Translations under genes and position numbers: made by a program
NCBI GenBank assembly: GCA_027021335.1
Contig: JALUUO010000016.1
Span: forward strand, 1,776-65,775
DNA: 64,000 nt
Source of the DNA: Nitrospirota bacterium
GTDB lineage: Bacteria > Nitrospirota > Thermodesulfovibrionia > SZUA-242
Direction: 5' to 3'
Shown: positions 1-25,558 of the stretch, piece by piece
Layout of the letters: each line of letters starts with the position of its first letter
Numbering within the stretch: the stretch's first letter is position 1
The notes under the pieces: generated by a model
Seen by the model: the letters and a program-made list of their open reading frames with translations, nothing else
The model's database searches: none
Told to the model about the DNA's origin: nothing

Positions 1-960
1 GATATCATTCTCGTCTGTCTGGCTGTCACAATCATTATCAATGCCGTCGTCACAGACCTCTCTTGCCTCTGGATACCTTGCCGGATCGTTATCGTCGCAG
101 TCGCCGGCGCACCATGCTACACCATCACCATCTGCGTCCACATCAGTGGATGGCCTGGCTCCGTCACAGTTTGAATCCTTGCCGTCGCAGATCTCAACAG
201 CGCCTGGATAGACACTCGAGTCATTGTCGTCACAGTCTATAGGACCGCACGCCCCACCTGAAGTTGAATATCCGTCTCCGTCCACGTCTGTTTCCACGCA
301 GGTAAGGCAATTTGGATCTGTTGCACAAGATGAATAATCAGCGCAATCGCTAAGCCCGTCGCAGTTGTTATCCTTGCCGTCACCGCATAGCTCGATAGCT
401 CCTGCATACACATCAGGATCACTATCATCACAGTCGTCACCACCACAAATCGTTAATGAATGTCCGTCACCGTCGTTATCCGGACAAACACATCCTGCCT
501 CATCCAGGCTACCGTCGCAGTTGTTGTCTTTATTGTCTCCACAGATTTCAATGTTGCCGGGATATACTGATGCATCAAAATCGTTGCAGTCGGGCGGATT
601 GTCACAGAGCCTTACTCCATCTCCGTCTGGGTCTCTTTCGTTATAGGGCAGTATACCGTTACAGTCGTCATCAATTTTATTACATAGCTCTACCGCGCCG
701 GGATATCTCGCCGGATCGTTATCATCGCAGTCGCCGGCGCACCATGCTACACCGTCACCATCAGCATCCACGTCAATAAATGACTGATATCCGTCACAGT
801 TTGAATCCTTACCGTCACAGATCTCGGCTGCATTTGGATGTACTTTGGCATCCTGATCATCACAGTCGGTCTGGCTCCCGTTTAAGCAACTTGTATCTCC
901 GGGGTTGCCGTAGCCGTCTTGATCGATGTCAATACACTGCGCCCGAAGATTCGGAGCCCA
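1..960. repeat. Direct repeat copy 1. 960 bp are identical to 2817..3776 and cover the MopE-repeat coding region of the two tandem paralogs
   Basis: Base-by-base comparison of lines 1-960 with 2817-3776. Identity ends at ...ttcggagccca (about 960 and about 3776), after which the sequences diverge. Confidence 0.85.
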
Positions 961-1033
961 CATGCATAAAACAAAAACAGCCCACAACATTATGCTTGAA
1001 TACTTTAGTAGACTTTTTAATAGAGTTTTCATG
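1..1033 (-). CDS. Partial CDS (N-terminal about 344 aa; C-terminus lies beyond the window start). Secreted protein with MopE-like Cys/Asp-rich metal-binding repeats, paralog of the next gene and probably also a multiheme cytochrome
   Basis: Minus-strand ATG at 1033 preceded by GGAGG RBS. Translated N-terminus MKTLLKSLLKYSSIMLWAVFVLCMWAPNLRAQCIDIDQDGYGNPGDT... matches the N-terminus of the 1050..3827 protein. nt 1-960 are identical to nt 2817-3776. Confidence 0.6.
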
Positions 1034-1049: not shown

Positions 1050-3827
1050 TTAACGGCGGCGTCCGGTACGTCGTCTGTCTCCCCCCATGCGCGGTGGTTG
1101 AAATCCACGCTCATGTTTATGACACATTGTGCAATCTCGTCCTGAATTATGTGCCTGACCGCCTGGGGCTGTTCCGTCGGCCTGATGATGATTTGTTTGA
1201 GTGTGGCATGTATTACATATGTAGTTTTCCGTGGACATGTCATCCGGACGATCTATCAGATCATAGGCAAAACTGTAGGGTCCTGTCCTGGCTTCGAACA
1301 CCACCGGGGTTCCGCGAACCAGACTGCGTATAAATGCCAGATTTATATTATTGCGGAAATTGACCTGTTGTCTCATCGGGTTGTGGCACTCGACGCAATT
1401 GAGAGAGGCTAGTTGGCCGGTATATGGATCTACGTATTTGTCACTGTAATGGGCTATAACTTTGATATCAGAACCGCCGTTCTGGGCATTCGGACTATCA
1501 GCTTTATGACAACCGTAGCATTTGCTGTTGTCGATAGGAGAGTCAAAGACAGCATCCACTATATCCCCGTTTTCATCCGCCGTGTGACATACCACGCAAT
1601 CAAAAACATTATGAGGAGGAGGAGGTTGCGTCGGTAGGAAGGCGTTACTATGTGAATGACAGTTAGTACACTTTTTACCGTCATTGTGTCCTATATAACC
1701 GAATTCGTCATTATCCGCAGGCGCGCCTCCATCATAGTGATGATGGTTGGTTATGGTATGACAGGTTTCACATACGTTTTCATTGTGAGGAGGGCCATCT
1801 GCAAACGAATCCTCTCCCTGATGGCTTGTGAAAACTATATTGCTATCCGGTATGACACTACCTGAAAGAGTTGATCGTATAAGCTTTATATTTGTTTGTT
1901 CGAACATGGGATTATGACAATCCACACAGGAATTGTTGTAGATATATTTGCCAGATCCGTTTTCCGAGGTGTGGGCAAGCACATCCGGCGCTTCCGGAAA
2001 GCTATCTTTTAATATGCCTAAAGGCGTATGGCACTGCTTGCATTTTGCACTTGGTATTTCAGCACTGTAATCAATAATTCCGTTCCAGTCATCCATGTGA
2101 CAATAGTTACAGTTACTCAGGAAATCCTCTGTATTATGCGGCGGCTGGGGTGTTGCTCCTGCCGGTGAGAAACCTGCGGAGTGGAGATGGCACTCAGTGC
2201 ATTTTTTGCCGTCATTATGCGACTGTCCACCCGGGGCTGTTCCGTCGTTTTGGTGATGATTGGTTCGGGTATGGCAGGTTTCGCATATGTTTTCATTATG
2301 AGGAGGACCGTCTGCAAACGAGCCCGGACCTTCACCGGCCGTAAATTCAACATAGCTTTCGTTATGTTTACCAGTGGCTTGGTTGTCTAAACAGATATAT
2401 TCTTTAATAAGCTTGCCGTATGATGTCCCGTACTTACGGTTCTGCTCCTGTTGGTGAGGGTTGTGACAAGTTACACAATGCATATCCCAGTCTCCATACT
2501 TGGTTCCCAGTGTCAACGAGGAGTGAACCTTTACGTTTGGAGCAGAGCCGAAGCCGTAGGGAAAAGGATCTGGATATTGTGCTTTTAGCACTCCGTTTAG
2601 AGGATCAGATGTGTCAGCCGGATCTGCATGACAACGTTGGCATTGATAGTTTCCGCCCGGTACCGCATTGCCTTCCGCATCTTTATAATGACACTTGCCG
2701 CAGCGCAGCTCTGTATTGTCAGGGTGCAGGGATTCGTCCGGATTAAGCAGGTCAGCCAGATGCGGCGGGTCTTTTGGTGTTGTTTTGGTTCCGCAGGTCG
2801 GTGGACCGCAGTCGGCGATATCATTCTCGTCTGTCTGGCTGTCACAATCATTATCAATGCCGTCGTCACAGACCTCTCTTGCCTCTGGATACCTTGCCGG
2901 ATCGTTATCGTCGCAGTCGCCGGCGCACCATGCTACACCATCACCATCTGCGTCCACATCAGTGGATGGCCTGGCTCCGTCACAGTTTGAATCCTTGCCG
3001 TCGCAGATCTCAACAGCGCCTGGATAGACACTCGAGTCATTGTCGTCACAGTCTATAGGACCGCACGCCCCACCTGAAGTTGAATATCCGTCTCCGTCCA
3101 CGTCTGTTTCCACGCAGGTAAGGCAATTTGGATCTGTTGCACAAGATGAATAATCAGCGCAATCGCTAAGCCCGTCGCAGTTGTTATCCTTGCCGTCACC
3201 GCATAGCTCGATAGCTCCTGCATACACATCAGGATCACTATCATCACAGTCGTCACCACCACAAATCGTTAATGAATGTCCGTCACCGTCGTTATCCGGA
3301 CAAACACATCCTGCCTCATCCAGGCTACCGTCGCAGTTGTTGTCTTTATTGTCTCCACAGATTTCAATGTTGCCGGGATATACTGATGCATCAAAATCGT
3401 TGCAGTCGGGCGGATTGTCACAGAGCCTTACTCCATCTCCGTCTGGGTCTCTTTCGTTATAGGGCAGTATACCGTTACAGTCGTCATCAATTTTATTACA
3501 TAGCTCTACCGCGCCGGGATATCTCGCCGGATCGTTATCATCGCAGTCGCCGGCGCACCATGCTACACCGTCACCATCAGCATCCACGTCAATAAATGAC
3601 TGATATCCGTCACAGTTTGAATCCTTACCGTCACAGATCTCGGCTGCATTTGGATGTACTTTGGCATCCTGATCATCACAGTCGGTCTGGCTCCCGTTTA
3701 AGCAACTTGTATCTCCGGGGTTGCCGTAGCCGTCTTGATCGATGTCAATACACTGCGCCCGAAGATTCGGAGCCCAGACTACCAGAACTAAAATACAACT
3801 CAGAAGTAGCTTTAAAAAAAACTTCAT
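1050..3827 (-). CDS. Secreted fusion protein: N-terminal MopE-like (DxDxDGDG / CxxDCDDxDxxxxPGAxExCdGxDnDCdG) putative metal-binding repeats plus a C-terminal multiheme c-type cytochrome with 15 CxxCH motifs
   Basis: The ORF track shows a 932-aa ORF. The likely true start is MKFFLK at 3827 with a GGAGG RBS, followed by a signal peptide. I counted 15 CxxCH motifs: CGKCH, CQRCH, CVTCH, CETCH, CTECH, CNYCH, CKQCH, CVDCH, CETCH, CTNCH, CVVCH, CYGCH, CVECH, CNTCH and CTMCH. The module FADGPPHNENxCETCH...HNDGKKCTxCH is triplicated. Confidence 0.75.
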   Translation of the reverse strand: MKFFLKLLLSCILVLVVWAPNLRAQCIDIDQDGYGNPGDTSCLNGSQTDCDDQDAKVHPNAAEICDGKDSNCDGYQSFIDVDADGDGVAWCAGDCDDNDPARYPGAVELCNKIDDDCNGILPYNERDPDGDGVRLCDNPPDCNDFDASVYPGNIEICGDNKDNNCDGSLDEAGCVCPDNDGDGHSLTICGGDDCDDSDPDVYAGAIELCGDGKDNNCDGLSDCADYSSCATDPNCLTCVETDVDGDGYSTSGGACGPIDCDDNDSSVYPGAVEICDGKDSNCDGARPSTDVDADGDGVAWCAGDCDDNDPARYPEAREVCDDGIDNDCDSQTDENDIADCGPPTCGTKTTPKDPPHLADLLNPDESLHPDNTELRCGKCHYKDAEGNAVPGGNYQCQRCHADPADTSDPLNGVLKAQYPDPFPYGFGSAPNVKVHSSLTLGTKYGDWDMHCVTCHNPHQQEQNRKYGTSYGKLIKEYICLDNQATGKHNESYVEFTAGEGPGSFADGPPHNENICETCHTRTNHHQNDGTAPGGQSHNDGKKCTECHLHSAGFSPAGATPQPPHNTEDFLSNCNYCHMDDWNGIIDYSAEIPSAKCKQCHTPLGILKDSFPEAPDVLAHTSENGSGKYIYNNSCVDCHNPMFEQTNIKLIRSTLSGSVIPDSNIVFTSHQGEDSFADGPPHNENVCETCHTITNHHHYDGGAPADNDEFGYIGHNDGKKCTNCHSHSNAFLPTQPPPPHNVFDCVVCHTADENGDIVDAVFDSPIDNSKCYGCHKADSPNAQNGGSDIKVIAHYSDKYVDPYTGQLASLNCVECHNPMRQQVNFRNNINLAFIRSLVRGTPVVFEARTGPYSFAYDLIDRPDDMSTENYICNTCHTQTNHHQADGTAPGGQAHNSGRDCTMCHKHERGFQPPRMGGDRRRTGRRR
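2817..3776. repeat. Direct repeat copy 2 (see 1..960)
   Basis: Identical ORF-track entries 237..446 vs 3053..3262 and 365..646 vs 3181..3462 (offset 2816). Confidence 0.85.
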
Positions 3828-3883
3828 GACTCCTCCATAGTGACGCATAATAGGGTGTTTTTTTGTTTTAGGTTACTTTTAGG

Positions 3884-5623
3884 TTAATAGCTGAAACCCC
3901 GATGATTGCGTCCATGGCACCGCAAGTAGCATCTGCCTTTGAATGTTCCTAAGTCTTCGAATTTTAACTCACCACTCATTCTTTCAGGAGAAACAACGGA
4001 TGTGTCAAAATTGATAAGATGTGCGTTATTAACAGCATTCCCCTGAGAACTGCTTATGCCGTGAGGGTCGTGACATATTGCACATGGCGCGTTTTGTCTT
4101 ACTATATGAAAGTAGTGCCTGGCAAAACTTTCGTTGCCCAGTATGCTGTTTCTGTCGTGGCACTTATAACATAGCGCGTAGTTGTCAGGGCTTTCACTTG
4201 TGTAATCATTCATTATGTATTGCCTTTCAAGAAGGTAAGGATTTTGTGAGCCGTGAGGTCCTGCCGGGCCTGACCCTCCGGCCCCGGGGCCATTGTTATT
4301 GCTGTGACAGTCGGTGCAGTAGATGACACTGGCTGTTGTGTATCCAGGCAGAAGACTTGGAACGTTTGGGTTTCGTCCAGGCCCTTCGACCGGATGGTAT
4401 GCCGGGTTACTTAAATCAAACTGAAGCCGTCTGTTTAACTGACGTATCTGTCTTGGCACCGCTGTTGTACCCTCGGCGCTGTCTCCATGACATTTAAAAC
4501 ATATCTCATATTGGTAAGAAGCTGTTTTTACGGGCACTCCCTGGGCATTTACTCCGGTTACTCCCATTTGCACGCCTTTTACGTTTGGGGCGCTTGCCTC
4601 TGAACTGTTCACCTGGTGGGGGTTATGGCAATCCATGCATTCCACGTGTCTTTGTACTGTCAGAAAATTTTCTTTTGGTTCATGAATTCCGGCTGTACTG
4701 GCCACAGGATGAAAGGAAAGTTTTGAAAACTGGCTCTCGATATTCAGGGCAGCCACATTCCCATTATGACAAGGGAAACAATTGTTTTCTTCTGCATACT
4801 CATTAAGCAACCTTTCTTGACTGCCGGCGCTGTGTGGACGGTGGCAGTTTTCACATGCATTTTCTGCGACAGTAGTCCATTCGGTATGTTTCCATGGATC
4901 TGGAGCTATTCCGTTCCAAGTGGACGTAGAAAGATTATGCGAGCAGGAAGACCATCCTGTTTTCTGATGGCACTTAAGGCATAAAGCCGATGATGAATTG
5001 ACCACTCTAAGAAACTTACCATTGGCGTTGTTATGTGGGTCATGGCATGAAATACACTGTAACTCATTGTTTTTATCCAGCTTGACTTCATCGATAAGCA
5101 GTGAAGGGTTTTTGAATTCAGGGTTTACTATCGAAAGATAGCTGTCATATACAAAAGAGATAGGATGATCGTCCGAAAGGTCACTGGTAAGTGCTGCTGG
5201 ACCTGAATCCAGGTATCGTTGTGTCATATCGATTTCAAGTAGTCTGGAGCCGAGATCACCTAATGCTATGGTTCCGTCATGACAAGTCAAGCAGAGCCTT
5301 GAAGCACCTGTTGGCTGTCCGATGTTTGTCTGAATTGTTGTGCTGCTATAAGGTATGTAGGTGGCGGTAGAGTCCCGCTTATTCCATAACAGCCCCACTC
5401 CTTGCGCTTTGTGCGGTGTGTGGCAGAAAACGCATACTTCGCCTTCACTTATAGCTTTTATGGTTCCCGGGCCGGAAACCGAAAGATTGTGCTTGGAATC
5501 CACGACACTCATTGATGAGGCCGGCAGAGCTGACAGCAGGAGGATCAGCGGCACGGCAACATAAAACAACCATGTTGTATTAGATGAATTTATGAATTTT
5601 TTATATATATACGGTCTCTTCAT
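3884..5623 (-). CDS. Multiheme c-type cytochrome (11 CxxCH plus one CxxxCH), secreted
   Basis: 579-aa ORF with an N-terminal hydrophobic segment. Motifs: CVFCH, CLTCH, CISCH, CLKCH, CENCH, CFPCH, CMDCH, CFKCH, CTDCH, CYKCH, CAICH and CYLRCH. Confidence 0.8.
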   Translation of the reverse strand: MKRPYIYKKFINSSNTTWLFYVAVPLILLLSALPASSMSVVDSKHNLSVSGPGTIKAISEGEVCVFCHTPHKAQGVGLLWNKRDSTATYIPYSSTTIQTNIGQPTGASRLCLTCHDGTIALGDLGSRLLEIDMTQRYLDSGPAALTSDLSDDHPISFVYDSYLSIVNPEFKNPSLLIDEVKLDKNNELQCISCHDPHNNANGKFLRVVNSSSALCLKCHQKTGWSSCSHNLSTSTWNGIAPDPWKHTEWTTVAENACENCHRPHSAGSQERLLNEYAEENNCFPCHNGNVAALNIESQFSKLSFHPVASTAGIHEPKENFLTVQRHVECMDCHNPHQVNSSEASAPNVKGVQMGVTGVNAQGVPVKTASYQYEICFKCHGDSAEGTTAVPRQIRQLNRRLQFDLSNPAYHPVEGPGRNPNVPSLLPGYTTASVIYCTDCHSNNNGPGAGGSGPAGPHGSQNPYLLERQYIMNDYTSESPDNYALCYKCHDRNSILGNESFARHYFHIVRQNAPCAICHDPHGISSSQGNAVNNAHLINFDTSVVSPERMSGELKFEDLGTFKGRCYLRCHGRNHRGFSY

Positions 5624-5673: not shown

Positions 5674-6735
5674 TTATTCCTTCACGTACTGGAAAACCTG
5701 TATTCTTTGGTTAAATGAATCGGATACATATATGCGGTCGTTACTGTCAATTAAAATGCCTGCAGGTAAATAGAACTCGCCCGGTTTACGGCCTGGAGTT
5801 CCAAAATAAAGCAGAGCATGCCCTTTGGGGTTGAATATCTGAATATTGTTGAATTCTGCATCAACCACATATATGTGGTTGTCACTGTCCACAGCTATGC
5901 CTCTTGGCTTGGAAAACGCTCCGGGGCCGTCGCCTGCTATACCGAAACTACTTAGAAAACCGCCGTCATTACCAAAAATCTGAACTCGGAAGTTCATAGA
6001 GTCTGTAACATACAGGTTTCCTTTAGTATCCAGACATATATTTGTAGGGTAATTAAATTCACCAGGCTTCTCTCCACGTTGACCTAAGTCAAATAACAGC
6101 TTTCCATTAGTACGGTTATAAACACGTATTTTATGCGCCATGGTATCAACAACATAAAGTTTTTCAAGCAGGCTGTCTACGACCAGACCGGTAGGCCTCA
6201 TGAATTCACCAATTGTTGTTTCCAGCAATCCATCTCGGTTAAATACATAAACCTTCTTTGCCACAGAGTCTGATACATATATTTTCCCATCCTCGGCCAC
6301 ATCTACGTCGATTGGGGAAAGGAAAACCATATTATCTTTTTTGGCAGGGATCTGACGGTATTTACCGTCCGGCAGATGAAATATATGTACTAACCTGCCT
6401 CCTGTGTCAACAATAAGAAGATTATCTTTTTTATCCAAGGCTAACCCGTATGGACGGATAAGCAAAGGCATATTTTTACCTAAAAACAGTTCTTTAACCC
6501 GATTTAAAAAGCCTGTGCTTTTAGATATATCCCTTGGAAAGTTTATCTCTCTTTCAAAAACTATCCTTGCCTTTTGTGGTGGCGGTGGCCATGTGATGGC
6601 CTGACTGTTTTTTTCTTTTTGCTGGAGTTGAGTTGTTTCAGAACATCCTGCAAAAAAAGCGCTTACGAGTATTAACATGCAGAAGATCTTTATTGCCGGA
6701 AAAAACGAAAGCCTGGCTGTTTTTGAAATTAACAT
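5674..6735 (-). CDS. NHL-repeat (six-bladed beta-propeller) lipoprotein
   Basis: Repeated NHL-type motifs: LYVTDSMNFRVQIF, IYVVDAEFNNIQIFNPKG and IYVSDSFNQRIQVF. The lipobox-like segment is AFFAGCSE. The ORF track extends the ORF to 6843, overlapping the upstream gene, so the start is taken at the internal Met (MLISK...) about 6735. Confidence 0.7.
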   Translation of the reverse strand: MLISKTARLSFFPAIKIFCMLILVSAFFAGCSETTQLQQKEKNSQAITWPPPPQKARIVFEREINFPRDISKSTGFLNRVKELFLGKNMPLLIRPYGLALDKKDNLLIVDTGGRLVHIFHLPDGKYRQIPAKKDNMVFLSPIDVDVAEDGKIYVSDSVAKKVYVFNRDGLLETTIGEFMRPTGLVVDSLLEKLYVVDTMAHKIRVYNRTNGKLLFDLGQRGEKPGEFNYPTNICLDTKGNLYVTDSMNFRVQIFGNDGGFLSSFGIAGDGPGAFSKPRGIAVDSDNHIYVVDAEFNNIQIFNPKGHALLYFGTPGRKPGEFYLPAGILIDSNDRIYVSDSFNQRIQVFQYVKE

Positions 6736-6745
6736 CAATTGTGTT

Positions 6746-8716
6746 TTACCTCCTGCTTCCAAAGAGCCTTCGAGCTCTGAGGTAGATGCGCTCACGTTTT
6801 TCTTTTCCAATGGTTGTTTCCTGGTTTCGATTAAGGTTTTCATAGGTTAAGGTTATATCCAAAGTTCTGTAGCGCCAACGTAAATTAGTACGGAAGTTGA
6901 ATGAAACCTGTTTTTCACCCACAAGTTCCTGGTTGCGGTACTGTGTTTCAATATCACACTTTGCTCTGTATGGAAGGAATAAAAACAACTTTGCGGAAAC
7001 TGTACGGTCGATTGAATCCTCAATATACTCGAATGTGGATGTTTCAGAGTAGCTGGCGTTTAGATTTAAAACAGGGTTGAAATATCGTAAATTTTTTAAT
7101 CTGAAAATGAGGACTTCGGAGTATTTTGTGGTTTTATATGGATTTCTAACAGACTTATGAATAGTTTTTTCTGCTCTGGTTGTTGAATTTTTCCACTTTA
7201 TTTCAGTGCCGAATGACTTGTCTCTTATATCTTCAAGCCTGCCGATATCGTTTCCGCCTTTTAGCGATTGATCAGAACTGCCCGCATAGTAAAATACCCT
7301 CCAAGCCCTTTTTATATCCAGTTGTCCCCCATAAGTTTGAGTTCGCGTTTCGAATTCGATTGGAGGAGTAGGTTCAAAGTCGTAGCTTATATAAACTGTC
7401 TTACCTAACAGAAAATCTCCATATGCCGGTAAGAGTCTTATTTTGGTAAGTGTTCCGGATTTTTCCAGTCTGTAGTGAAGCCCTTCTTCAATAGGAAGTC
7501 CGGTTACTGGATCGGTGATCTCAAGGCTGTCTTTATCCTCTATTTTAATTGTCGCCTCATCTACAAGATCCCGTTTTAGAAGAATTACATCATCGCCCTC
7601 CGGGTTTTCTCCAAAAAAATGTTCTTCTCTTGAAATGTGGCTTTTGTCTTCAGAAAAGTTTTCATCTGTGTTTTCTATGAAAGTACGGTAGTTGAGAGTC
7701 AGCCTGCCAAAAGAAAGGCGTTTACGGTAATTGAAACGTAATTCTGCAGAAAGTGTATCTTTTTTGCCTGAGTTTAATGTGTAATTTTCTCCGTTTAGTT
7801 CGACACCTGTACTAAGGCTTTCATAAAGTTGGTGTTTCAGGCCGGCGCGGTACCGGTGTTGTTTTGTCACTTTGCCTACCAGCCTGGAATCCTCATAGTC
7901 GTAACGATAGTAGGAATCAAGGTTTTTTGTATGTCTAATATAGATGTTTTCTCCTACTGTAATATCTCTGTATGGAATTGTGCCTGTCTGGTCTCGCCAG
8001 CGAAACAGGCTTGTCAATGCATGCTGCTCTTTAGAACCGAAGTGGTAAGTGTTTGAGGCATTGACCAGATCTGTCTGTAAATCCAGATGTGCCACAGCTT
8101 GGGACCTTCTTTCGTTTTCATACCTTAAGGTACTTGTCCCTAGCATGCCTTCGTTACGAATGCTCAGGTATGCTCTGTTAAGTTTGTCATTGGTTTTGTC
8201 CTGTCCCTCTCCAACAGAGCTCAGCGTGTCATAACCAAGGTCTGTAGGAAACAATTTATGCCGGTAATGAAGAGCAACCCCTTTTTGGGTGGTAGTGAGA
8301 CGTTGGCTTTCGAAAAAACTGCTGTTTGTATCCTGAGTGTTTCTGTTTGCAAGCAGGGTCATTGATATGGGATGAGACTTTAAAATAAGCATTGATAGGT
8401 TGTAATCAGTGTACTTGTCTCTTAACTCCTGCTGAAACTGCATATTGGATGTTTCAGACTCCTGCTTGAAAATAAACTTCGTGTCGGCTTTGAATTCGAG
8501 AAGGCGTGGGTGATAGACGTAGCCATCCACGCCCAATCCCAGTTCTTCAAATAATGCTTCGTCCAGTTCTTTAATAGGCATGTTCGTCCGCAAATTTTCG
8601 CGGTAATCATTTTCCCGCTCAGCTCCAAGTCCGATAAAACCTCCTAGTCTATTAAAACTGACTGAAGTGATAGGGGTAGTCTGGTTTTGGGCCTGTAATA
8701 AAGGAACCTGTAACAT
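6746..8716 (-). CDS. Hypothetical beta-rich protein, possibly an outer-membrane beta-barrel/porin-like component of the cytochrome cluster
   Basis: 656-aa ORF rich in Y/R/N/T/S with alternating-residue segments typical of beta-barrels. In-frame upstream translation (…KRFKIAIITCFYII-MLQVPLLQA↓QNQ) reads like a signal peptide, but I found no canonical start codon upstream. Confidence 0.5.
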   Translation of the reverse strand: MLQVPLLQAQNQTTPITSVSFNRLGGFIGLGAERENDYRENLRTNMPIKELDEALFEELGLGVDGYVYHPRLLEFKADTKFIFKQESETSNMQFQQELRDKYTDYNLSMLILKSHPISMTLLANRNTQDTNSSFFESQRLTTTQKGVALHYRHKLFPTDLGYDTLSSVGEGQDKTNDKLNRAYLSIRNEGMLGTSTLRYENERRSQAVAHLDLQTDLVNASNTYHFGSKEQHALTSLFRWRDQTGTIPYRDITVGENIYIRHTKNLDSYYRYDYEDSRLVGKVTKQHRYRAGLKHQLYESLSTGVELNGENYTLNSGKKDTLSAELRFNYRKRLSFGRLTLNYRTFIENTDENFSEDKSHISREEHFFGENPEGDDVILLKRDLVDEATIKIEDKDSLEITDPVTGLPIEEGLHYRLEKSGTLTKIRLLPAYGDFLLGKTVYISYDFEPTPPIEFETRTQTYGGQLDIKRAWRVFYYAGSSDQSLKGGNDIGRLEDIRDKSFGTEIKWKNSTTRAEKTIHKSVRNPYKTTKYSEVLIFRLKNLRYFNPVLNLNASYSETSTFEYIEDSIDRTVSAKLFLFLPYRAKCDIETQYRNQELVGEKQVSFNFRTNLRWRYRTLDITLTYENLNRNQETTIGKEKRERIYLRARRLFGSRR

Positions 8717-8853
8717 TATTATATAAAAGCAGGTGATAATTGCTATTTTAAATCTTTTTACTATGTTGCACCTCGTACATCACGTATTGAATTATTTTTT
8801 GTTTATACTTCGCTGATAAAACCATTAAAAACCATTAAAATATTAAACCGGCC

Positions 8854-9504
8854 TCACTCTGTTTTAAGCATAAAACGGGCCTGGCTTCCATGAGGGTCAT
8901 GACACTCTGTACAGGCTGTATCGTCTATTTCCTCATGAATCACTGTTTTTAAAAGTCGATTTTCGTTGTGGCATTTAAAGCAGAGCTTCTGAATAGGCCA
9001 GATCTGCAGCATATACGGGTTTGCGGTTTCATGAGGATGATGACACTCCAAGCAAGCCCCGAATTGAACAGGTGCATGTACCCATGCAAAAGTTTTGCCC
9101 AAATCCTCTTGTGACATATAGTCATGACATCTAAGGCAAATTCTGAGTTTTTTATCTAAAAGGGTGAAACCAACCGGAGCTGCAATAGTCCTTTTTGTTG
9201 TCTGGTGGCATCCATAACACATTTTTACGGCATATGGTGGATGTTGAACCGTTGTAGGAGACAGCTCTACCGGAGCTTTAGTTTGATCCTGGGTGTTTCT
9301 TTTAGCGGCGGTATTAAATTCTTTCCGGTCGGTCGGTTTGATCTCCGGTGGTGTGTCAGTTGTTTTTTTTGTCTTTTGTATTGGCGGAACGCCATCGAAA
9401 AAAAAGGATAAAACACGGTGTTTCGTCATCTGGTCACAACCCTGTAGCATAAAAAAGGCTATGAAAATTGCCGCTATCAAAGTCAATATTTTTTTTTTGA
9501 TCAT
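8854..9504 (-). CDS. Pentaheme c-type cytochrome lipoprotein
   Basis: 216-aa ORF. Signal/lipobox MIKKKILTLIAAIFIAFFMLQGC. Motifs: CYGCH, CLRCH, CLECH, CFKCH and CTECH. Confidence 0.8.
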   Translation of the reverse strand: MIKKKILTLIAAIFIAFFMLQGCDQMTKHRVLSFFFDGVPPIQKTKKTTDTPPEIKPTDRKEFNTAAKRNTQDQTKAPVELSPTTVQHPPYAVKMCYGCHQTTKRTIAAPVGFTLLDKKLRICLRCHDYMSQEDLGKTFAWVHAPVQFGACLECHHPHETANPYMLQIWPIQKLCFKCHNENRLLKTVIHEEIDDTACTECHDPHGSQARFMLKTE

Positions 9505-9505
9505 G

Positions 9506-10699
9506 CTATTTTGTCTTTTTATTTTTTAACGCTTTTGGAGCTCCTGACCCATGTTTTTTACCATATTCTTTCTGATTCTCAACTTCCCCTTTTGCAAGGG
9601 GGCTTCCTTCTCTTGCATTACCAAATCCATAAATATTGATGTATGGCGGTCCGTATTGGCTTGTGACTAAAATCAGGTGTTCTAAAATGAAATCATCATG
9701 GCTGAGCGAATTAAAATAAGACAGCAGGCTTTTGTCTGTTGTAATTCCGGCTGGAAGCCAGAGAGCTCCGGGCACCATGGCGTCTCCCCATCCACCAAAG
9801 AAGAGAGCCGGTTTTCCCTCTGCTGTGAATATTTGAACATTTTCAAACGCTGAATCGACGACATAGATGAAACCTTTATCATCAACAGCAACTCCCTTTG
9901 GCCTGGCAAAGGTTCCAACAGCATCTCCGCATTGTCCAATAACAAGGAGGACATTTCCATCCGGGTCAAACTTCTGTATTCTGCAGTTGAGCGTGTCCGA
10001 AACGTAAAGATTTCCATCTTTGTCAATTGTTAGATTTGTCGGGTGATAAAACTGTCCTTCGTCCTGTCCAGGATCACCGATAATGCTTAAACGTTCTCCG
10101 GTTTTTTTATCCAGGACTTCAACTTCATGGTCTCTTGAATCAGCAACATACAACTTATCCCCAAAGACGGCAACATCAGTCGGCTTAAACTGTTCTTTAT
10201 TGCCAAAAGCCCGCTTGAAATTATTATCCTTATCAAACACAACGACCTGGTGGCGGTCATAGTCGGCAACATATTTTGTCCCGTTTTTATCAAAAGCAAT
10301 ATTTATAGGGCGAATTAGATTTCCGGCTCCCTGGTCGTGAAACCAGTCAAACTTGTTGTTTACAACGTCAATAACCATGACAGTTCCGAACTGGACGTCA
10401 CATACATAGATAATACCGTTATACACTTCTATTCCGTAAGGTTTCCCAAAGTTTCTAACGCTTTCTCCTCCAACAACAAAGGTTTCGAATGCGGAGCGTT
10501 TCTCTACATCCCTGGAAGATGAGATACGTTTAAGAAACTGTACTTTTGGCGGTTGAGGCGGAGGTGGAAAGAACCTGGTGCCAAGTTTTTGCCCGGTTGT
10601 TGCGCATCCACTCATAAGCAGAAGGGTAGACAGGCATGTAACCATTAAATAAAAGGGTGTAACAGTATGTGAAAGGAACTTTATAACTATGGTTTGCAT
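9506..10699 (-). CDS. NHL-repeat beta-propeller lipoprotein, paralog of 5674..6735
   Basis: NHL-type motifs: IYVCDVQFGTVMVIDV, YVADYDRHQVVVFDKD, LYVADSRDHEVEVLDKK, LYVSDTLNCRIQKFDPDGN and IYVVDSAFENVQIF. Lipobox LLLMSGC. Confidence 0.75.
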   Translation of the reverse strand: MQTIVIKFLSHTVTPFYLMVTCLSTLLLMSGCATTGQKLGTRFFPPPPQPPKVQFLKRISSSRDVEKRSAFETFVVGGESVRNFGKPYGIEVYNGIIYVCDVQFGTVMVIDVVNNKFDWFHDQGAGNLIRPINIAFDKNGTKYVADYDRHQVVVFDKDNNFKRAFGNKEQFKPTDVAVFGDKLYVADSRDHEVEVLDKKTGERLSIIGDPGQDEGQFYHPTNLTIDKDGNLYVSDTLNCRIQKFDPDGNVLLVIGQCGDAVGTFARPKGVAVDDKGFIYVVDSAFENVQIFTAEGKPALFFGGWGDAMVPGALWLPAGITTDKSLLSYFNSLSHDDFILEHLILVTSQYGPPYINIYGFGNAREGSPLAKGEVENQKEYGKKHGSGAPKALKNKKTK

Positions 10700-10858: not shown

Positions 10859-11569
10859 TTATTTTATATGACAGGTTAGGCAAAGTCCGCTGGCTGTTCC
10901 ACCTTGATTCGCTGATTGAGCTACTCTCAACAGGTGAGTGTTAGGAACGGACTCCTGGTCATGGACGTCATGGCATGAACTGCACTGTACCCTGCCGTTG
11001 TCCAGAACATCTGAGATGGTTCCTGAGAGCCCCATAACCCTGGTTGTCGGATCCCAGAGATTTGGATCAGCTACATTATTATATTCAATAGATATCGGAT
11101 GAGTGTTGCTCATGTTTTTGTCGCCGCTTACGTCCGGGATGCCGGGTATCTGGAACTGGCCGCCTGCAAAGCTGTCAATATAAATTGATCCGCTATTTCC
11201 GTCAAACTGATCAATGCCTATTGTTCCATCGTGGCAGCCCAGGCAGAGCTTCGAAACACCCATGGGTTCAGGTTCGGCAGCGCCGTCTATGAAGTTGGCA
11301 TGACTATCCTCCGCATACATAAGATAGGTAGAGGAGCTTAGATCGTGGTTCCATAAAAGTCCGAAATCAGCTCTGTTACTGCCGAAATCATGGGGTACAT
11401 GGCATACACGGCATATTTCACCGCTGGTATTCCATGTTCTATCGCTAAAATCATGAGGAGATCCAACAATTCCTGCTCCGTTACCTTCTGCAAAAGAGAT
11501 GGTTGCAGTCATGCCTATTACCATTATTGCTGTACAACACAATGTAGCTAATTTTTTCATTTGTAACAC
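10859..11569 (-). CDS. Tetraheme c-type cytochrome, secreted. First gene of the operon
   Basis: 236-aa ORF. Signal peptide MLQMKKLATLCCTAIMVIGMTATISFA. Motifs: CRVCH, CLGCH, CSSCH and CLTCH. Confidence 0.8.
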   Translation of the reverse strand: MLQMKKLATLCCTAIMVIGMTATISFAEGNGAGIVGSPHDFSDRTWNTSGEICRVCHVPHDFGSNRADFGLLWNHDLSSSTYLMYAEDSHANFIDGAAEPEPMGVSKLCLGCHDGTIGIDQFDGNSGSIYIDSFAGGQFQIPGIPDVSGDKNMSNTHPISIEYNNVADPNLWDPTTRVMGLSGTISDVLDNGRVQCSSCHDVHDQESVPNTHLLRVAQSANQGGTASGLCLTCHIK

Positions 11570-11734: not shown

Positions 11735-11750
11735 TGCAATTACCGGGCCA
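11735..11750 (-). promoter_or_regulatory. Candidate sigma-54 (RpoN) -24/-12 promoter driving the cytochrome/NHL operon
   Basis: Minus-strand sequence is TGGCCCGGTAATTGCA, against the consensus TGGCAC-N5-TTGCW. There is one mismatch and the spacing is exact. It lies about 165 nt upstream of the ATG at 11569. Confidence 0.5.
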
Positions 11751-11955: not shown

Positions 11956-13359
11956 TCAACGATTTTTCACAGCTTTTTCCCTGTTATACTTTCTTGGAAA
12001 GTGACATGCTGGTGCGCATCCGCCGCCGTTGTCATCTATCTTGAAGTTAAGTGGAAACTGCCATTTACCGAATTTTGTGATTTCCCTGATATGCTTTGGC
12101 CCTTTAGATCCATGGATATCATGACATACAACACATCTTCGTCCCTTTTTGGGGTCTTTCTTAACATGAACGTAATGGAGATTGGTTGTTCCGTTTCTAA
12201 AACCGGTGCTCTCGGATGTCTCCTTTTCTTGAACGAGTTCCTCATCATGGCAGCCGAAACATAGGCTATACTTTTCCGGCGCAAACTTGGTGTAAAACGT
12301 GGATGGAAACGCTCTGCGTAACATTCTCCATTCGTTTGAGCCATGAGGATTGTGGCAGGCGGCACAATCACCATCCATCAAAATCGGACCATGAAGTTGC
12401 GGGCGCTCTTTAAGCCATCTTTTCATGTTTATTAGTCTGCCTTTGTCGGTTTTTATTGCACGGTTATGACACTTCAGGCAGAGGTCCATAGTCTCCTCGG
12501 CTTTGAGCTGCTTTGGGAAATCTGATGCGTGTGGATCATGGCAGTTTACGCAGCTTCCCTCGGCCTGGATGGCTCCGTGTGGGGTCTTTACCTGTGTTAT
12601 ATGTTCTTCTTTATCCGAATGGCAGCCATAGCATAGCTCTGGTGGTGATAGAAGGAGTTGGTATTTATTTTCGGTGCCGTGTGGACTATGACATCCGGTG
12701 CACCCAACCATCTCAATGGCTGCGTGGACATACTTCTTGGTTGTAATTGCCTCTTCTTTATCGACATGGCACATAAGACAGACATCTTTGCCTTCAGCAG
12801 GCAGCCGGAAAGGATAGGGGGACTCGTGTGGATCGTGACATATTGTGCACTCTCCTGCTGCCACAGGAGCATGAACATATTTGTGTGTAGTTTTATCATC
12901 CTCATGACAGTTAAAGCAAAGCTTGCTGACCGGAGAGTCTAAAAGTTGATATGGGTTGGGTGATTGGTGAGGACTGTGACACATGGTACAGTCTCCGGAT
13001 GCCACCGGTACATGAACCTCTTTTTGAGTGTTTTTCGGATCATGACACATGTAGCACAAGACGTCACCGGTATCGATAACTTTAAATTTATTGTCTTTTG
13101 TAAGTTCATGACATACCGTGCAGTCCCCCATGGCAAAGGCGGCGTGAACATAGCCGTCTGGTGGAGGGGTGGCAAGATCTTTGTGACATTTAAAGCAGGT
13201 TGCAGGGTTTGAAGCATCAAGTCCTGCATGGCCGGCTTCAGCTGAAAAAGCAGCTTGTGGACTAAAGAGGAAAAGCCGGGAAATAAGTATGCCGGCAAAG
13301 ATAATTAAAGTTTTTTTCAAAAAGTGGTTATTGTTTAGATAATATTTTGGATACAGCAC
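11956..13359 (-). CDS. Multiheme c-type cytochrome (14 CxxCH plus one CxxxCH)
   Basis: 467-aa ORF starting at GTG. The likely real start is TTG at about 13321, giving MKKTLIIFAGILISRLFLFSPQAAFSA. Motifs: CFKCH, CTVCH, CYMCH, CTMCH, CFNCH, CTICH, CLMCH, CTGCH, CYGCH, CVNCH, CLKCH, CAACH, CFGCH, CVVCH and CAPACH. Confidence 0.8.
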   Translation of the reverse strand: MLYPKYYLNNNHFLKKTLIIFAGILISRLFLFSPQAAFSAEAGHAGLDASNPATCFKCHKDLATPPPDGYVHAAFAMGDCTVCHELTKDNKFKVIDTGDVLCYMCHDPKNTQKEVHVPVASGDCTMCHSPHQSPNPYQLLDSPVSKLCFNCHEDDKTTHKYVHAPVAAGECTICHDPHESPYPFRLPAEGKDVCLMCHVDKEEAITTKKYVHAAIEMVGCTGCHSPHGTENKYQLLLSPPELCYGCHSDKEEHITQVKTPHGAIQAEGSCVNCHDPHASDFPKQLKAEETMDLCLKCHNRAIKTDKGRLINMKRWLKERPQLHGPILMDGDCAACHNPHGSNEWRMLRRAFPSTFYTKFAPEKYSLCFGCHDEELVQEKETSESTGFRNGTTNLHYVHVKKDPKKGRRCVVCHDIHGSKGPKHIREITKFGKWQFPLNFKIDDNGGGCAPACHFPRKYNREKAVKNR

Positions 13360-13702
13360 TCCTGACCTCGTTTACCTGAAAAGGTTTATTAATAAAAGTA
13401 GTGACTCCGGCTCTTTTCGCTTCTTCTTTATCTAGCAGCGAATCGTATGCTGTCATCATTATAATTTTTGTGCTTGGTTGTAGTTCCATGGTTTTTTTCG
13501 CCACTTCTATGCCGTCGCAATCGGGCATGACAAAGTCGGTTATGATTACATCAAAATGTTTCTGTTTTATTTTTTCTATGGCTTCGGTTCCGTCCGAGGC
13601 CGAGACAACGTTGAATTTATCTTTGCCCATGGACTCTTGAATGGACCACCTCACAAGTTTTTCATCATCCACAATGAGTAAATTCATTTTATCTCTCATC
13701 AT
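13328..13702 (-). CDS. Single-domain response regulator (CheY-like receiver)
   Basis: LLIVDDEKLVRWSI...DVIITDFVMPDCDGIEV...KIIMMTAYDS, with the receiver-domain Asp residues present. Confidence 0.8.
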   Translation of the reverse strand: MMRDKMNLLIVDDEKLVRWSIQESMGKDKFNVVSASDGTEAIEKIKQKHFDVIITDFVMPDCDGIEVAKKTMELQPSTKIIMMTAYDSLLDKEEAKRAGVTTFINKPFQVNEVRSAVSKILSKQ

Positions 13703-13791
13703 GGCCTTGTTTATATGACTTTAGAGGGGTATCCATGTTTAGTTATATGCAATATCAATGCCACATGTTTTGCCCCTCCGTTTTTACCCGC

Positions 13792-17256: not shown

Positions 17257-17778
17257 ATGAAGATGAAAACCTGGATGGTAATTGTGATGGCTGCGATGTT
17301 GGCGTTTGCAGTAGCAGATGGTGTAGATGCTGCTGATTATGTGGGGGTAAAAAAATGTAAGATGTGCCATATGAAACAGTACAAAAGCTGGAGCAAAACC
17401 AGAATGTCAAAGGCTTTTGAACTTCTGAAACCGGGCGTCGCAGCAGAGGCCAAGAAGGCTGCAGGTGTAGACCCAAACAAGGACTATACTGCAGATGCTT
17501 CGTGCCTGGGATGCCACACGACCAATGGAAAAGCTGATATGCCTGGTGTTCAGTGTGAGGCTTGTCACGGTGCTGGATCGGACTTCATGAAAGTCATGAT
17601 GACCAATCGGAACTATAAGCGTGAGGATATTAAGAAGAAGGGGTTGAATCCGGTGCCTGATGAAGCTGTATGTAAGAAGTGTCATAACAAGTCGAGTCCG
17701 TTTTATAAAGAGTTCAATTATGCTGAGCGTGTAAAAAAAGGAACACACGAGCACTTTCCGTTGAAAAAGCAGCATTAA
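17257..17778 (+). CDS. Tetraheme c-type cytochrome (c3/c7-like), periplasmic
   Basis: RBS AAGGAGGGG. Signal peptide MKMKTWMVIVMAAMLAFAVA. Motifs: CKMCH, CLGCH, CEACH and CKKCH. Confidence 0.8.
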   Translation: MKMKTWMVIVMAAMLAFAVADGVDAADYVGVKKCKMCHMKQYKSWSKTRMSKAFELLKPGVAAEAKKAAGVDPNKDYTADASCLGCHTTNGKADMPGVQCEACHGAGSDFMKVMMTNRNYKREDIKKKGLNPVPDEAVCKKCHNKSSPFYKEFNYAERVKKGTHEHFPLKKQH

Positions 17779-18493: not shown

Positions 18494-18763
18494 TTATTTG
18501 TCTTTGTTCTTGAAGATTGAAGACGTCTCGTCCGACAACAGTCCGCATGCCGTGTAATTGACCACCCATAGAAGAATACTAGCTAGTGGGATAGCCACGA
18601 TTGCCAGACCTGTTCCTGGTCCGGTAGATTCGTGCAGCAGACTGGCAGAATGAATCATGTAAAAAAACCAGCTGAAGAACGAGAGAATAAAGGTGTTAAA
18701 ACCAAGCACCATTAGAATTTGAACAAAGTAGGCGCTTTTACTGTGCTTTGAAGTTTTAGTCAT
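18494..18763 (-). CDS. Small hypothetical membrane protein (two TM segments)
   Basis: Strong RBS AGGAGG 6 nt before the internal ATG (MTKTSKHSKSAYFVQILMVLGF...) and two hydrophobic stretches. The ORF-track version, 18494..18829, overlaps the upstream gene. Confidence 0.45.
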   Translation of the reverse strand: MTKTSKHSKSAYFVQILMVLGFNTFILSFFSWFFYMIHSASLLHESTGPGTGLAIVAIPLASILLWVVNYTACGLLSDETSSIFKNKDK

Positions 18764-20018: not shown

Positions 20019-20425
20019 TAATTGTAGTGGCTTACAATAATATTTAATGTTGCAACGGTTGTGCCACCTTAATCCCATTTTTTATTAAACATTAAAACAT
20101 ACTGTTTTTCAAGGGTTTTTATTAAAAGTAGTCTATTTTTAACTAGTGTCCGTAAATCGGACAGTGTCTAATAATTGTAAATCTTGTATTTAGTCTTTAT
20201 TTTCAGTGTGTTGTTTATGAATTTTCTTTCTGTTTTCAGATCGGTGTACGAAATTCGGTCAATATGCTGTGTAGGGGAGATGATAAGGTTAAAAGAGATA
20301 CTTTATTTTATAAAACAATAGGTTAGATACTATTTTTAGTTGTGCTCATAGTGTTGGCATATGACTTGCTTAATATCAGGACATTAAAGTATTTCGTGAC
20401 ATCAACTTGTGATGGAAGGGTGTGT

Positions 20426-20920: not shown

Positions 20921-20967
20921 TCCGGTGTATAAACGGTGCGGTTTGAGATTTTGACACTTTAAACGAG

Positions 20968-23463: not shown

Positions 23464-23476
23464 AGGAGTAATACGA

Positions 23477-25556: not shown

Positions 25557-25558
25557 AA

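Follow-up and report, generated by a model that had tools for sequence, protein, structure and literature searches.

For large surface cytochromes, the means by which they are held and placed outside the cell are little understood, except in the lipid-anchored MtrC/OmcA type, whose Shewanella members (the decahemes MtrC, OmcA and MtrF) consist of pentaheme blocks and are proposed to form the extracellular end of an electron conduit. Other conduits are known from the Uet clusters of Candidatus Tenderia and Gallionella, which encode an undecaheme cytochrome, two NHL proteins, a beta-barrel, a PPIase and CcsAB (10.1101/2022.05.06.490989), and from PCC3, with extracellular cytochromes of 10-35 hemes (PMC9900912) in which the heme number varies in repeat units (PMC5566968). 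The methanotroph proteins MopE and CorA, in turn, are secreted or surface proteins that are stabilised by Ca2+ (PMC3423442, PMC3912023). In MopE*, Cu(I) is bound by His132, His203 and kynurenine-130; the PF11617-like stretch, residues 6-44, is invisible or cleaved in the crystals, and removal of the first 24 residues, the first half of this motif, abolishes Cu(II) column binding (PMC3423442). The only solved relative of such repeats, the teneurin C-rich domain, holds three structural Ca2+ ions via Asp residues and has all of its Cys in disulfides (PMC9058538).

Here we describe a locus in which features of these systems are combined. It lies in a window of 64,000 nucleotides of DNA from a Nitrospirota bacterium (the whole stretch that was analysed) and encodes a protein of 925 aa that, judged from its sequence, is a Sec-exported multiheme c-type cytochrome with PF11617 repeats N-terminal to 15 CxxCH motifs. 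Literature searches found no description of MopE/PF11617 repeats fused to a multiheme cytochrome. By homology, the fusion of repeats to a multiheme chain is not unique to this protein: it recurred in 57 of the best 120 matches, mostly from Nitrospirota MAGs and with 10-25 hemes, and the repeats were N-terminal in all 57.

The gene and its N-terminal repeats

The gene is contained in an open reading frame at 1050-3848 on the minus strand, with a probable start at ATG 3827 (MKFF...). We favoured this start over the upstream ATG 3848 because a Shine-Dalgarno sequence, GGAGGAG (3830..3836, minus strand), sits two bases 5' of it; it gives a product of 925 aa, and the coordinates 1050-3827 given in a preliminary description of this DNA were therefore correct. 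Residues 1-24 (3756..3827, minus strand) read as a Sec signal peptide (MKFFLKLLLSCILVLVVWAPNLRA|QC) that is probably cleaved in the type I manner after LRA, and a similar hydrophobic leader is found at the N-terminus of nearly all full-length homologues. We also considered the first Cys as a lipoprotein site and rejected it, as RAQC, with Gln at the -1 position, is not a lipobox; a lipoprotein reading is possible for some of the homologues, which have LAAC or AAAC. No NCBIfam model matched the 925-aa protein, and Pfam returned no non-heme domain other than PF11617.

The N-domain (residues 25-345; 2793..3755, minus strand) was resolved by Pfam and a repeat alignment into six PF11617 Cys/Asp repeats of ~47-64 aa each, which start at residues 27, 79, 126, 177, 241 and 289. 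PF11617 matched the whole protein at E 2.7e-62 (207.1 bits against a gathering cut-off of 27, six repeats) and residues 25-345 alone at E 1.2e-65 (217.8 bits, six stretches). The MopE-like repeat array that had been proposed for the N-terminus is thus real. Nor does it consist of disordered linkers only, given the significant PF11617 match and a predicted ordered structure: the AF2 model of the N-domain reached a mean pLDDT of 88.4, almost without regular secondary structure. Among its 321 residues are 74 Asp (23%), 33 Cys (10%), two His and no Met, the pI is 4.05 and the net charge about -73; across 30 homologues, the invariant columns are Cys and Asp. The thrombospondin-type-3-like character that had also been ascribed to these repeats was borne out at the level of motifs, with six DxDxDG motifs counted, but not at the level of the family, as Pfam TSP_3 (PF02412) did not match the 925-aa protein at E<=1. 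Two homologues, P0042 and P0046, carry a precomputed PF02412 match.

Compared with MopE and CorA, the 925-aa protein would likewise be secreted, and its Ca2+ stabilisation is putative. Residues 6-44 of MopE* (PDB 2VOV) aligned with residues 178-220 at E 0.008, that is, over one ~40-residue copy of the motif, while residues 47-336, which include His132, His203 and Kyn130, were unaligned. The MopE motif has two of the four Cys, whereas the 925-aa protein has six full repeats, 15 predicted hemes and no MopE core, so that the beta-sandwich domain with the Cu(I) site of MopE is without counterpart. Teneurin-4 (7PLP) and thrombospondin type-3 have in common with the N-domain an acidic/Cys motif, C.D..DN.(C/G)DG..DC, and DxDxDG loops. 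The alignment of 7PLP to residues 204-235 was weak (E 0.04; E 0.16 with the family profile), and in it most acidic residues that bind Ca2+ in teneurin-4 appear to be kept in repeat 4 (ligand list in PMC9058538). The teneurin C-rich domain and the modelled N-domain are both irregular folds without regular secondary structure, but the four-Cys pattern of the bacterial repeats differs from the 1-3, 2-5, 4-6 pairing of teneurin. A Foldseek search of the PDB with the N-domain model gave sub-threshold matches only (AOAH and an OmpA with TSP3 repeats), none of them significant; the AOAH region was also weakly matched by the N-domain, and similarity to teneurin/AOAH ranged from E 0.04 to 0.006.

Heme modules and putative cysteine pairing

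The remainder of the protein carries 15 CxxCH motifs and no CxnCH variant, in agreement with the 15-heme domain described earlier, and is made of three paralogous pentaheme modules with 42-50% pairwise identity, all on the minus strand. Residues 346-560 (2148..2792) comprise a junction (TKTTPKDPPH...), conserved in the consensus of the fusion family, and module 1, with CxxCH at 376, 396, 451, 515 and 543. Module 2 (residues 561-735; 1623..2147; CxxCH at 573, 596, 634, 686 and 720) is 50% identical to module 1, and module 3 (residues 736-925; 1050..1622; CxxCH at 744, 770, 811, 871 and 899) ends in an Arg-rich tail (PRMGGDRRRTGRRR) followed by the stop codon at 1050-1052. A triplicated FADGPPHNENxCETCH...KKCTxCH unit had been reported for this region; two copies are literal and the third is degenerate (SFAYDL...ENYICNTCH...GRDCTMCH).

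The whole protein scored 60.6 bits with PF14522 (cut-off 24.8), 51 with PF14537 (25) and 44.7 with PF22113 (30), the model of MtrC/MtrF domains II/IV. Each of the three modules passed PF14522 and/or PF14537, module 1 reaching 32.6 bits with PF14537 against the cut-off of 25; by these models the protein belongs to the multiheme c-type cytochromes with class III / c7-type modules. With PF22113, single modules gave 20.6 bits, no match and 27.9 bits, the last being the best stretch in module 3 (profile positions 8-167 of 176) and under the cut-off of 30. Every module has enough conserved extra His for bis-His ligation; those of module 1, in an alignment of 37 sequences, are H12, H91, H114, H181, H193 and H205. 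A profile search of the PDB returned generic NrfA and octaheme matches only (1e-6 to 1e-4), with no match to OmcS, OmcE, OmcZ, MtrC, OmcA, MtrF or UndA at E<=1. For the heme domain, AlphaFold gave a poor model (pLDDT 55.9), with which Foldseek found nothing; a linear-wire geometry of the heme chain is assumed. The protein shares with MtrC, OmcA and MtrF the pentaheme blocks and the proposed position at the extracellular conduit end, but differs from them in having neither beta-barrel domains I and III nor a lipoprotein signal, and in arranging three modules in series instead of two that are crossed.

We used Cys co-loss and parity as a proxy for disulfide geometry. Among 1359 repeats, losses of two Cys left the pattern.C.C in 20 cases and C.C. 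in none. Counted irrespective of kinship, 40 of 45 full-length fusions had an odd number of Cys in both domains and 42 of 46 fusions an even total, while repeat-less relatives had an even number of extra Cys. Such parity would be expected if disulfide pairing were complete and included one bond that staples the two domains together. In this bond, Cys479 (KEYIC; codon 2391..2393, minus strand), the sole non-heme Cys of the heme part, may pair with the 33rd, odd Cys in the repeats. A Zn or Fe-S site made by the four repeat Cys was ranked low, since Cys parity and the extracellular-type partner domains oppose it. At one related locus (L085), a DsbA-family gene directly follows the homologue.

The neighbouring porin-cytochrome-like cluster

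The 925-aa protein gene is preceded, at a distance of 56 nt, by a gene for a 579-aa secreted cytochrome of the undecaheme type with a doubled-CXXCH domain (3884..5623; 11 CxxCH and one Cx3-4CH). Next to it, and like it on the minus strand, are genes for an NHL six-bladed beta-propeller lipoprotein (5674..6843; lipobox FAGC), a ~660-aa putative outer-membrane beta-barrel (6746..8761), a 216-aa pentaheme lipoprotein of the DmsE/doubled-CXXCH type (8854..9504; lipobox LQGC), a second NHL beta-propeller lipoprotein (9506..10699; lipobox MSGC), a 236-aa cytochrome with four hemes (10859-11569) and a 467-aa DmsE/GSU2203-like cytochrome with 14 CxxCH and one Cx3-4CH (11956-13359). A sigma-54-dependent response regulator (13792-15162) and a HAMP histidine kinase (15542-17035), again on the minus strand, stand at the head of the cluster, and genes for an ACIII-like complex occupy 20342-26839. 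We infer a beta-barrel fold for the ~660-aa protein, which had no Pfam or NCBIfam match. Its alternating hydrophobicity was 0.33 vs 0.19 +/- 0.04 in shuffles, a TM helix is absent, its homologues have signal peptides and a C-terminal ...RRxF, and a signal-peptide-like in-frame segment lies upstream of its first canonical start (8716). The pentaheme lipoprotein is a candidate periplasmic or in-pore cytochrome.

Five of these genes (NHL lipoprotein, pentaheme lipoprotein, ~650-aa putative beta-barrel, NHL lipoprotein and undecaheme) recur as a module that adjoins MopE-MHC genes in six of eight loci, namely the window, L002, L003, L081, L085 and L086, and is absent from the other two (L082 and L083). 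In all five loci outside the window that have the module, undecaheme orthologues with 54-70% identity adjoin the MopE-MHC genes. In L086, gene order and strand match those of the window, and a second MopE protein is encoded as well. By parts list, the module resembles Uet-type porin-cytochrome conduits: it has in common with Uet/PCC3 two NHL proteins, small periplasmic cytochromes, a doubled-CXXCH cytochrome with 11-12 hemes and a large, here putative, barrel, and loci related to that of the window add a SurA-type PPIase and ResB/CcsA, as in the Uet list. The Uet and PCC3 descriptions differ from it in that they include no PF11617 repeat domain and that their hosts are Proteobacteria, not Nitrospirota.

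No secretion-system gene was found near the 925-aa protein gene. Scans for sigma-70 promoters and terminators stayed at chance level, with no terminator in the 56-nt and 17-nt gaps between genes; a search with the sigma-54 consensus gave 5 sites vs 2.3 expected, which is a lead only.

Possible roles of the fusion and its tandem paralogue

Our preferred reading, to which we assign a probability of roughly 55%, is that the 925-aa protein is a heme wire which stands on a Ca2+/disulfide scaffold outside the outer membrane and extends the neighbouring conduit. An outer-surface role in electron transfer fits because the gene adjoins a conserved porin-cytochrome-like cluster, and to this extent the electron-transfer terminal suggested by the preliminary description is supported for the secreted heme chain; its metal- or mineral-binding part is unsupported. 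Electrons would be carried across the outer membrane by the conduit module (pentaheme lipoprotein, beta-barrel, two NHL lipoproteins and undecaheme) and relayed by the 925-aa protein along 15 bis-His-type hemes in three tandem pentaheme modules. The six repeats would provide a rigid scaffold, stabilised both by numerous Ca2+ ions in Asp loops of the DxDxDG type and by ~17 disulfides; one of these disulfides probably ties the scaffold to heme module 1. The extracellular location, Ca2+ binding, disulfides and anchoring role are putative, as are the direction and the substrate of electron flow. In the fusions, the repeats would take the N-terminal place of the lipid anchor seen in repeat-less relatives, six of eight of which have lipoprotein signals; since they occupy this position, they most likely anchor, space or dock the wire at the surface or matrix. 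The fusion family therefore suggests an alternative to the lipid anchor, a Ca2+/disulfide repeat stalk stapled to the first heme module, and together with the Uet-like conduit it could mark extracellular electron transfer in Nitrospirota, where this process is little characterised.

The preliminary description had instead suggested a terminal that binds metal ions or minerals. In such a model, which we consider doubtful, the Asp/Cys repeats would hold the redox substrate (Cu, Fe or Mn ions, or a mineral face) next to the heme chain, and the protein would act as a terminal reductase or oxidase of metals. PF11617 is named after a copper protein, MopE* shortened by 24 residues no longer binds to Cu(II)-IMAC (PMC3423442), a net charge of about -73 would attract Fe, Mn and Cu cations as well as positive oxide surfaces, and the N-domain is covalently next to heme module 1 across a conserved junction. 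The Cu(I) site of MopE (His/His/kynurenine), however, lies outside the motif, and no column of the repeats is rich in His or Met, with His in at most 14% and Met in at most 5% of the 1359 repeats at every column; MopE-type copper or metal binding is therefore unsupported. The same applies to docking of a substrate metal or mineral by the N-domain, as Cys parity fits disulfides and not thiolate ligands, and in the closest solved relative the equivalent Asp residues bind structural Ca2+. Moreover, the repeats are placed at the cell-proximal N-terminus, in the lipid-anchor position of the relatives, and elsewhere, in hosts with no sign of extracellular electron transfer, they are joined to FG-GAP, lectin, Ig, FN3 and peptidase domains; many non-redox surface proteins of Myxococcota, Bacteroidota, CPR bacteria and DPANN archaea carry them. 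From its sequence features, the N-domain is most likely not a redox-metal site, which disfavours its reading as a copper- or iron-binding enzyme, and the database label 'Cu-binding MopE' should not count as evidence of copper chemistry. Because truncated MopE* loses Cu(II)-column binding, the Asp-rich loops may bind cations weakly and have some transition-metal affinity.

We consider it unlikely that the repeat array is a mineral- or metal-ion-docking module that makes the heme wire a substrate-specific terminal oxidoreductase. Its carboxylate loops could then, for example, bind Fe2+/Cu2+ or the faces of Fe(III)/Mn oxides, with the array disulfide-stapled to the first pentaheme module. If true, Nitrospirota would have a means of respiring or oxidising solid metals that has not been described before, in which the paralogues with 10 and 15 hemes would differ in reach or redox window.

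A periplasmic electron store or relay, leading from an inner-membrane quinol oxidoreductase to the porin complex with the repeats as a spacer, is quite unlikely. It would be compatible with a Sec signal only, no lipobox and no nearby secretion system, with the ACIII-like complex at 20342-26839 and with the large periplasmic multiheme cytochromes proposed for PCC3 (PMC9900912). A periplasmic role is, however, already fitted by the pentaheme, tetraheme and 14-heme DmsE-like cytochromes of the cluster, and PF11617 repeats otherwise accompany extracellular adhesion-type domains. In addition, most of the repeat-less relatives are predicted lipoproteins, like surface MtrC and OmcA.

We regard it as very unlikely that the repeats mediate Ca2+-dependent self-assembly or NHL-propeller binding, yielding a conductive matrix or filament of several proteins. 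Genes for two NHL propellers always accompany the fusion, teneurins have an NHL domain besides a PF11617-like C-rich domain and are compacted under the control of Ca2+ (PMC9058538), and polymerisation was raised as a possibility by the authors of the Uet study (10.1101/2022.05.06.490989), but the PDB profile search found no similarity to the filament-forming OmcS, OmcE or OmcZ at E<=1.

Under our preferred reading of an extracellular wire, a tandem 10-heme paralogue would have the same scaffold and first module, only its distal module(s) being different. The 5' part of this paralogue (P0001, 730 aa, 10 hemes) occupies 1..1032 on the minus strand, runs off the window and has its own signal peptide (MKTLLKSLLK...). 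Positions 1-960 are 100% identical DNA to 2817-3776, which the preliminary description had missed; the two genes are identical over ~1.6 kb, 960 nt of it visible in the window. Their products have an identical N-domain and module 1 (to ~residue 557), followed by 53% identity. An independent assembly of the same region breaks inside the repeat, 248 nt past the undecaheme gene, and exact look-ups of the 932-aa product, the 925-aa product and P0001 matched no contig; the neighbouring gene did match. That the exact repeat misled the assembly into creating the 15-heme fusion or the tandem pair, where the genome truly has one gene or different partners, is hardly credible: the ~1.6-kb identity is unusual and the second assembly stops within it, but a swap across the repeat would still yield two repeat-plus-heme fusions, 15-heme fusions occur independently (P0020, P0027, P0030, P0038 and P0039), tandem pairs are also found in L082 and L086, and the two genes differ in their signal peptides and 3' halves. 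The fusion family is common among uncultured Nitrospirota of subsurface-type metagenomes.

Architecture of the repeat-cytochrome fusion

The open reading frame of the 15-heme cytochrome runs from 3848 to 1050 on the minus strand. Since GGAGGAG lies two bases 5' of an ATG at 3827, the product most likely starts there and comprises 925 residues, as the preliminary description had assumed. Its N-terminal leader is of the Sec type (MKFFLKLLLSCILVLVVWAPNLRA followed by QC); the sequence at the leader end, RAQC, does not qualify as a lipobox. Residues 25–345 (the N-domain) hold six Pfam matches to the PF11617 ("MopE") repeat, with E-values of 2.7e-62 for the whole protein and 1.2e-65 for the domain alone, while in residues 346–925 all 15 heme motifs are of the plain CxxCH form; this bears out the proposed fusion of a repeat array to a 15-heme cytochrome. 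The heme part is built from three pentaheme modules with pairwise identities of 42–50%. A triplicated FADGPPHNENxCETCH...KKCTxCH element had also been described; this string occurs literally twice, whereas the third copy is degenerate.

Among the generic multiheme models, PF14537, PF14522 or both score above their cut-offs in each of the three modules. For PF22113 (MtrC/MtrF pentaheme), the score summed over the protein, 44.7 bits, passes the cut-off of 30, but the individual modules all stay below it (20.6 bits for module 1, no hit for module 2 and 27.9 bits for module 3). Searching the PDB with the family profile at E ≤ 1 returned only generic NrfA and octaheme matches, and no MtrC, OmcA, OmcS, OmcE or OmcZ. 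Each module also contains six conserved histidines outside the motifs, which would allow bis-His ligation. CHNPM is conserved in modules 2 and 3, with CHNPH at the same place in module 1. An AlphaFold model of the heme part had too low a confidence (pLDDT 55.9) to be interpreted.

The repeat domain as a candidate calcium/disulfide scaffold

The possibility that the repeats are only a disordered linker was not borne out by structure prediction. Indeed, AlphaFold2 (input alignment of 30 sequences) gave the N-domain a mean pLDDT of 88.4 with almost no helix or strand, so that an ordered irregular knot is predicted and a disordered linker disfavoured. The domain is acidic (pI 4.05), with 74 Asp, 33 Cys, 2 His and no Met, and Cys and Asp form the invariant columns among its homologues. 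Across 1359 repeats drawn from 120 homologues, all four cysteines were present in 83%, and no His- or Met-rich column was found (maximum 14% His and 5% Met). Where two cysteines were lost, the pattern.C.C survived (n = 20) and C.C. never did (n = 0), which suggests pairing of C1 with C3 and of C2 with C4.

The heme part has a single non-heme cysteine, Cys479 (KEYIC). Cysteine counts were odd in both domains in 40 of 45 full-length fusions, with N-domain numbers ranging from 7 to 79, and the total was even in 42 of 46; the extra cysteines of repeat-less relatives are even in number. The binomial probability of this parity is 5e-9 if the sequences are counted as unrelated by ancestry. These counts agree with a fully disulfide-paired protein that has one bond between the two domains, and disagree with cysteines acting as thiolate ligands of metals. 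In one homologue locus (L085), a gene for a DsbA-family thiol-disulfide oxidoreductase (12831–13643) lies directly 3' of the MopE-cytochrome homologue and before the putative conduit module that the window also has.

What the MopE label implies can be gauged from the only two PDB sequence matches of the repeats, namely residues 6–44 of MopE* (E 0.008), the form of MopE in a crystal study, and the C-rich domain of teneurin-4 (7PLP; E 0.04). The high-affinity Cu(I) site of MopE* consists of His132, His203 and kynurenine-130, and the first 46 residues, which include the motif, are cleaved or invisible in the crystals (PMC3423442). In the teneurin domain, eight acidic residues hold three Ca2+ in thrombospondin-T3-like and LDL-A-like sites, and all six cysteines are disulfide-bonded (PMC9058538); most of the acidic Ca2+-ligand positions of the teneurin-4 domain are kept in repeat 4 of the 15-heme protein. 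The thrombospondin-type-3-like motifs noted earlier correspond to six DxDxDG motifs in residues 25–345, although a Pfam search of the protein gave no TSP_3 match. Foldseek with the N-domain model yielded sub-threshold matches only (an acyloxyacyl hydrolase region and an OmpA with T3 repeats), and a profile search reached AOAH with an E-value of 0.005. Other partner domains of the repeats are FG-GAP/VCBS, C-type lectin, Ig-like, FN3 and peptidase domains, and the repeats are also present in Myxococcota, Bacteroidota, CPR bacteria and DPANN archaea. Taken together, these matches, partners and taxa suggest that the repeats are a scaffold of general extracellular use, held by Ca2+ and disulfides, and we propose that the N-terminal repeats would serve as such a scaffold or as an anchor, stapled to heme module 1.

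Alternatively, the repeats could be a direct metal- or mineral-binding head, which we consider unlikely and less probable than the scaffold. The PF11617 repeats themselves stand, and MopE* lacking its first 24 residues loses Cu(II) column binding (PMC3423442), which is the only hint of metal affinity. However, the Cu(I) site of MopE* lies outside the motif and the repeats have no His- or Met-rich column; of the preliminary description, the match to the MopE repeat family is supported and the MopE-type copper/metal binding is not.

Distribution of the fusion and its tandem paralogue

The fusion is real and conserved. Among the 120 best database matches, 57 were fusions (at least two repeats and at least five hemes), all with the repeats at the N-terminus. 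Ten hemes were found in 33 of these proteins and 15 in five, with a maximum of 25, and strict DNDCD-type motifs numbered 2–16 per protein. Named members are proteins from Nitrospirota/Nitrospirae MAGs annotated as 'MopE-related' or hypothetical, and the closest homologue locus also belongs to a Nitrospirota MAG. The argininosuccinate lyase encoded in the window shares about 60–63% identity with sequences from named Nitrospirota/Thermodesulfovibrionales MAGs and up to 90% with its nearest matches. A scan of 1.84 billion representatives, with the junction and module 1 as query, retrieved 713 relatives, of which 218 had E-values of 1e-10 or lower and 47 had values of 1e-30 or lower. Repeats were present in 14 of the 47 closest, and the remoter relatives are giants with 20–46 hemes that lack the repeats. 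Of the eight repeat-less relatives among the best matches, six carry a lipoprotein signal; the repeats thus sit in the position otherwise taken by the lipid anchor. The junction C..P.C.TKT.PKD.PH is conserved in the family, which indicates that the fusion is old; a literature search found no paper on it. In three loci from 'Gammaproteobacteria' MAGs (L004–L006), the same pentaheme module builds proteins of 23–30 hemes, and in L006 the hemes come first and the MopE-type motifs follow on their C-terminal side, opposite to all 57 fusions.

A second gene starts at 1032 on the minus strand, 17 nt past the stop of the 15-heme gene, with its own Shine-Dalgarno sequence and a signal peptide unlike that of its neighbour. 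Its full product, encoded on the same 66,853-nt contig, has 730 residues and 10 hemes; the two proteins are identical over the repeat domain and module 1, to about residue 557, and share 53% identity beyond. This protein-level identity spans roughly 1.6 kb, of which 960 nt are exact in the window (1–960 equals 2817–3776 at every base). A second, independent assembly of the region breaks within the repeat, 248 nt beyond the upstream cytochrome gene, which is the behaviour expected of a real long repeat in short-read assembly. The shared stretch reflects either recent gene conversion, duplication of a 'constant' part (repeat domain and module 1) or assembler consensus. Further tandem pairs occur in homologue loci L082 and L086.

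A putative Uet-like conduit cluster and other features of the window

Closely spaced on the same strand, 5' of the 15-heme gene, lies a cytochrome cluster headed by a sigma-54 response regulator and a histidine kinase. It encodes a 14-heme DmsE/GSU2203-like cytochrome and a tetraheme, a first NHL-propeller lipoprotein, a pentaheme lipoprotein, a 656-residue protein matching no family, a second NHL lipoprotein and, 56 nt from the 15-heme gene, a secreted undecaheme. Homologues of the 656-residue protein have signal peptides, no TM helix, a C-terminus ending ...RRxF and an alternating hydrophobicity of 0.33, compared with 0.19 ± 0.04 in shuffles; by these features it is probably an outer-membrane beta-barrel.

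Compared by parts only, the neighbourhood matches the parts list of the published Uet porin-cytochrome cluster (10.1101/2022.05.06.490989) and resembles PCC3 (PMC9900912, PMC5566968). Full-length orthologues of five core genes lie beside MopE-cytochrome genes in L002, L003, L081, L085 and L086, and the core module is absent from L082 and L083. L086 keeps the gene order and strand of the window, with an extra MopE protein and SurA/FKBP isomerases, and L081 additionally encodes SurA and ResB/CcsA. The best-supported reading is that the 15-heme protein would act as an extracellular, or at least envelope-distal, relay of a Uet-like conduit. Teneurins combine NHL and PF11617-type Cys-rich domains within one protein, whereas here they are co-encoded separately (5674–10699 and 2793–3755); this could be fortuitous, or could hint that the two interact in a conserved way.

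The ORF of the 656-residue protein begins with an ATG without a signal peptide. Just 5' of it (8717–8761, minus strand), in frame and after a stop, lies a good signal peptide (...NIVKRFKIAIITCFYIIMLQVPLLQA followed by QNQ) without ATG, GTG or TTG, which suggests either that translation begins at a rare codon (ATA/ATT) or that the sequence contains an error; signal peptides of the homologues are normal. The C-terminus of the 15-heme protein is an Arg-rich tail (PRMGGDRRRTGRRR; 1053–1094, minus strand) that is missing in the 10-heme paralogue and in the L001 homologue, and the putative barrel likewise terminates ...GSRR, after its ...RLF. Two intergenic elements resembling sigma-54 -24/-12 sites, each with a single mismatch (11735–11750 and 13748–13763, minus strand), lie upstream of the tetraheme and 14-heme genes and near the sigma-54 response regulator; window-wide, such elements were not above chance (5 versus 2.3 expected).

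Beyond the cluster, a plus-strand gene row at 20342–26839 resembles Alternative Complex III or a Psr/Qrc-like complex in gene content (a pentaheme c7-type cytochrome, a molybdopterin-family subunit, a 4Fe-4S protein, an NrfD membrane subunit and a multi-domain cytochrome c) and is a possible link of the cytochrome cluster to the quinone pool. Two cytochrome c554-like genes (17257–17778, plus strand; 18756–20078, minus strand) lie in between. On the minus strand, 41921–45811 encodes a 1296-residue protein, large by bacterial measure, composed almost entirely of 17–18 RCC1/RLD beta-propeller repeats (E about 1e-240). Finally, a low-GC plus-strand stretch at 46000–50700 (0.34–0.39 versus about 0.45), with genes for an NAD-dependent epimerase/dehydratase family protein, UDP-galactopyranose mutase and glycosyltransferases, is a typical surface-polysaccharide island that was possibly acquired.
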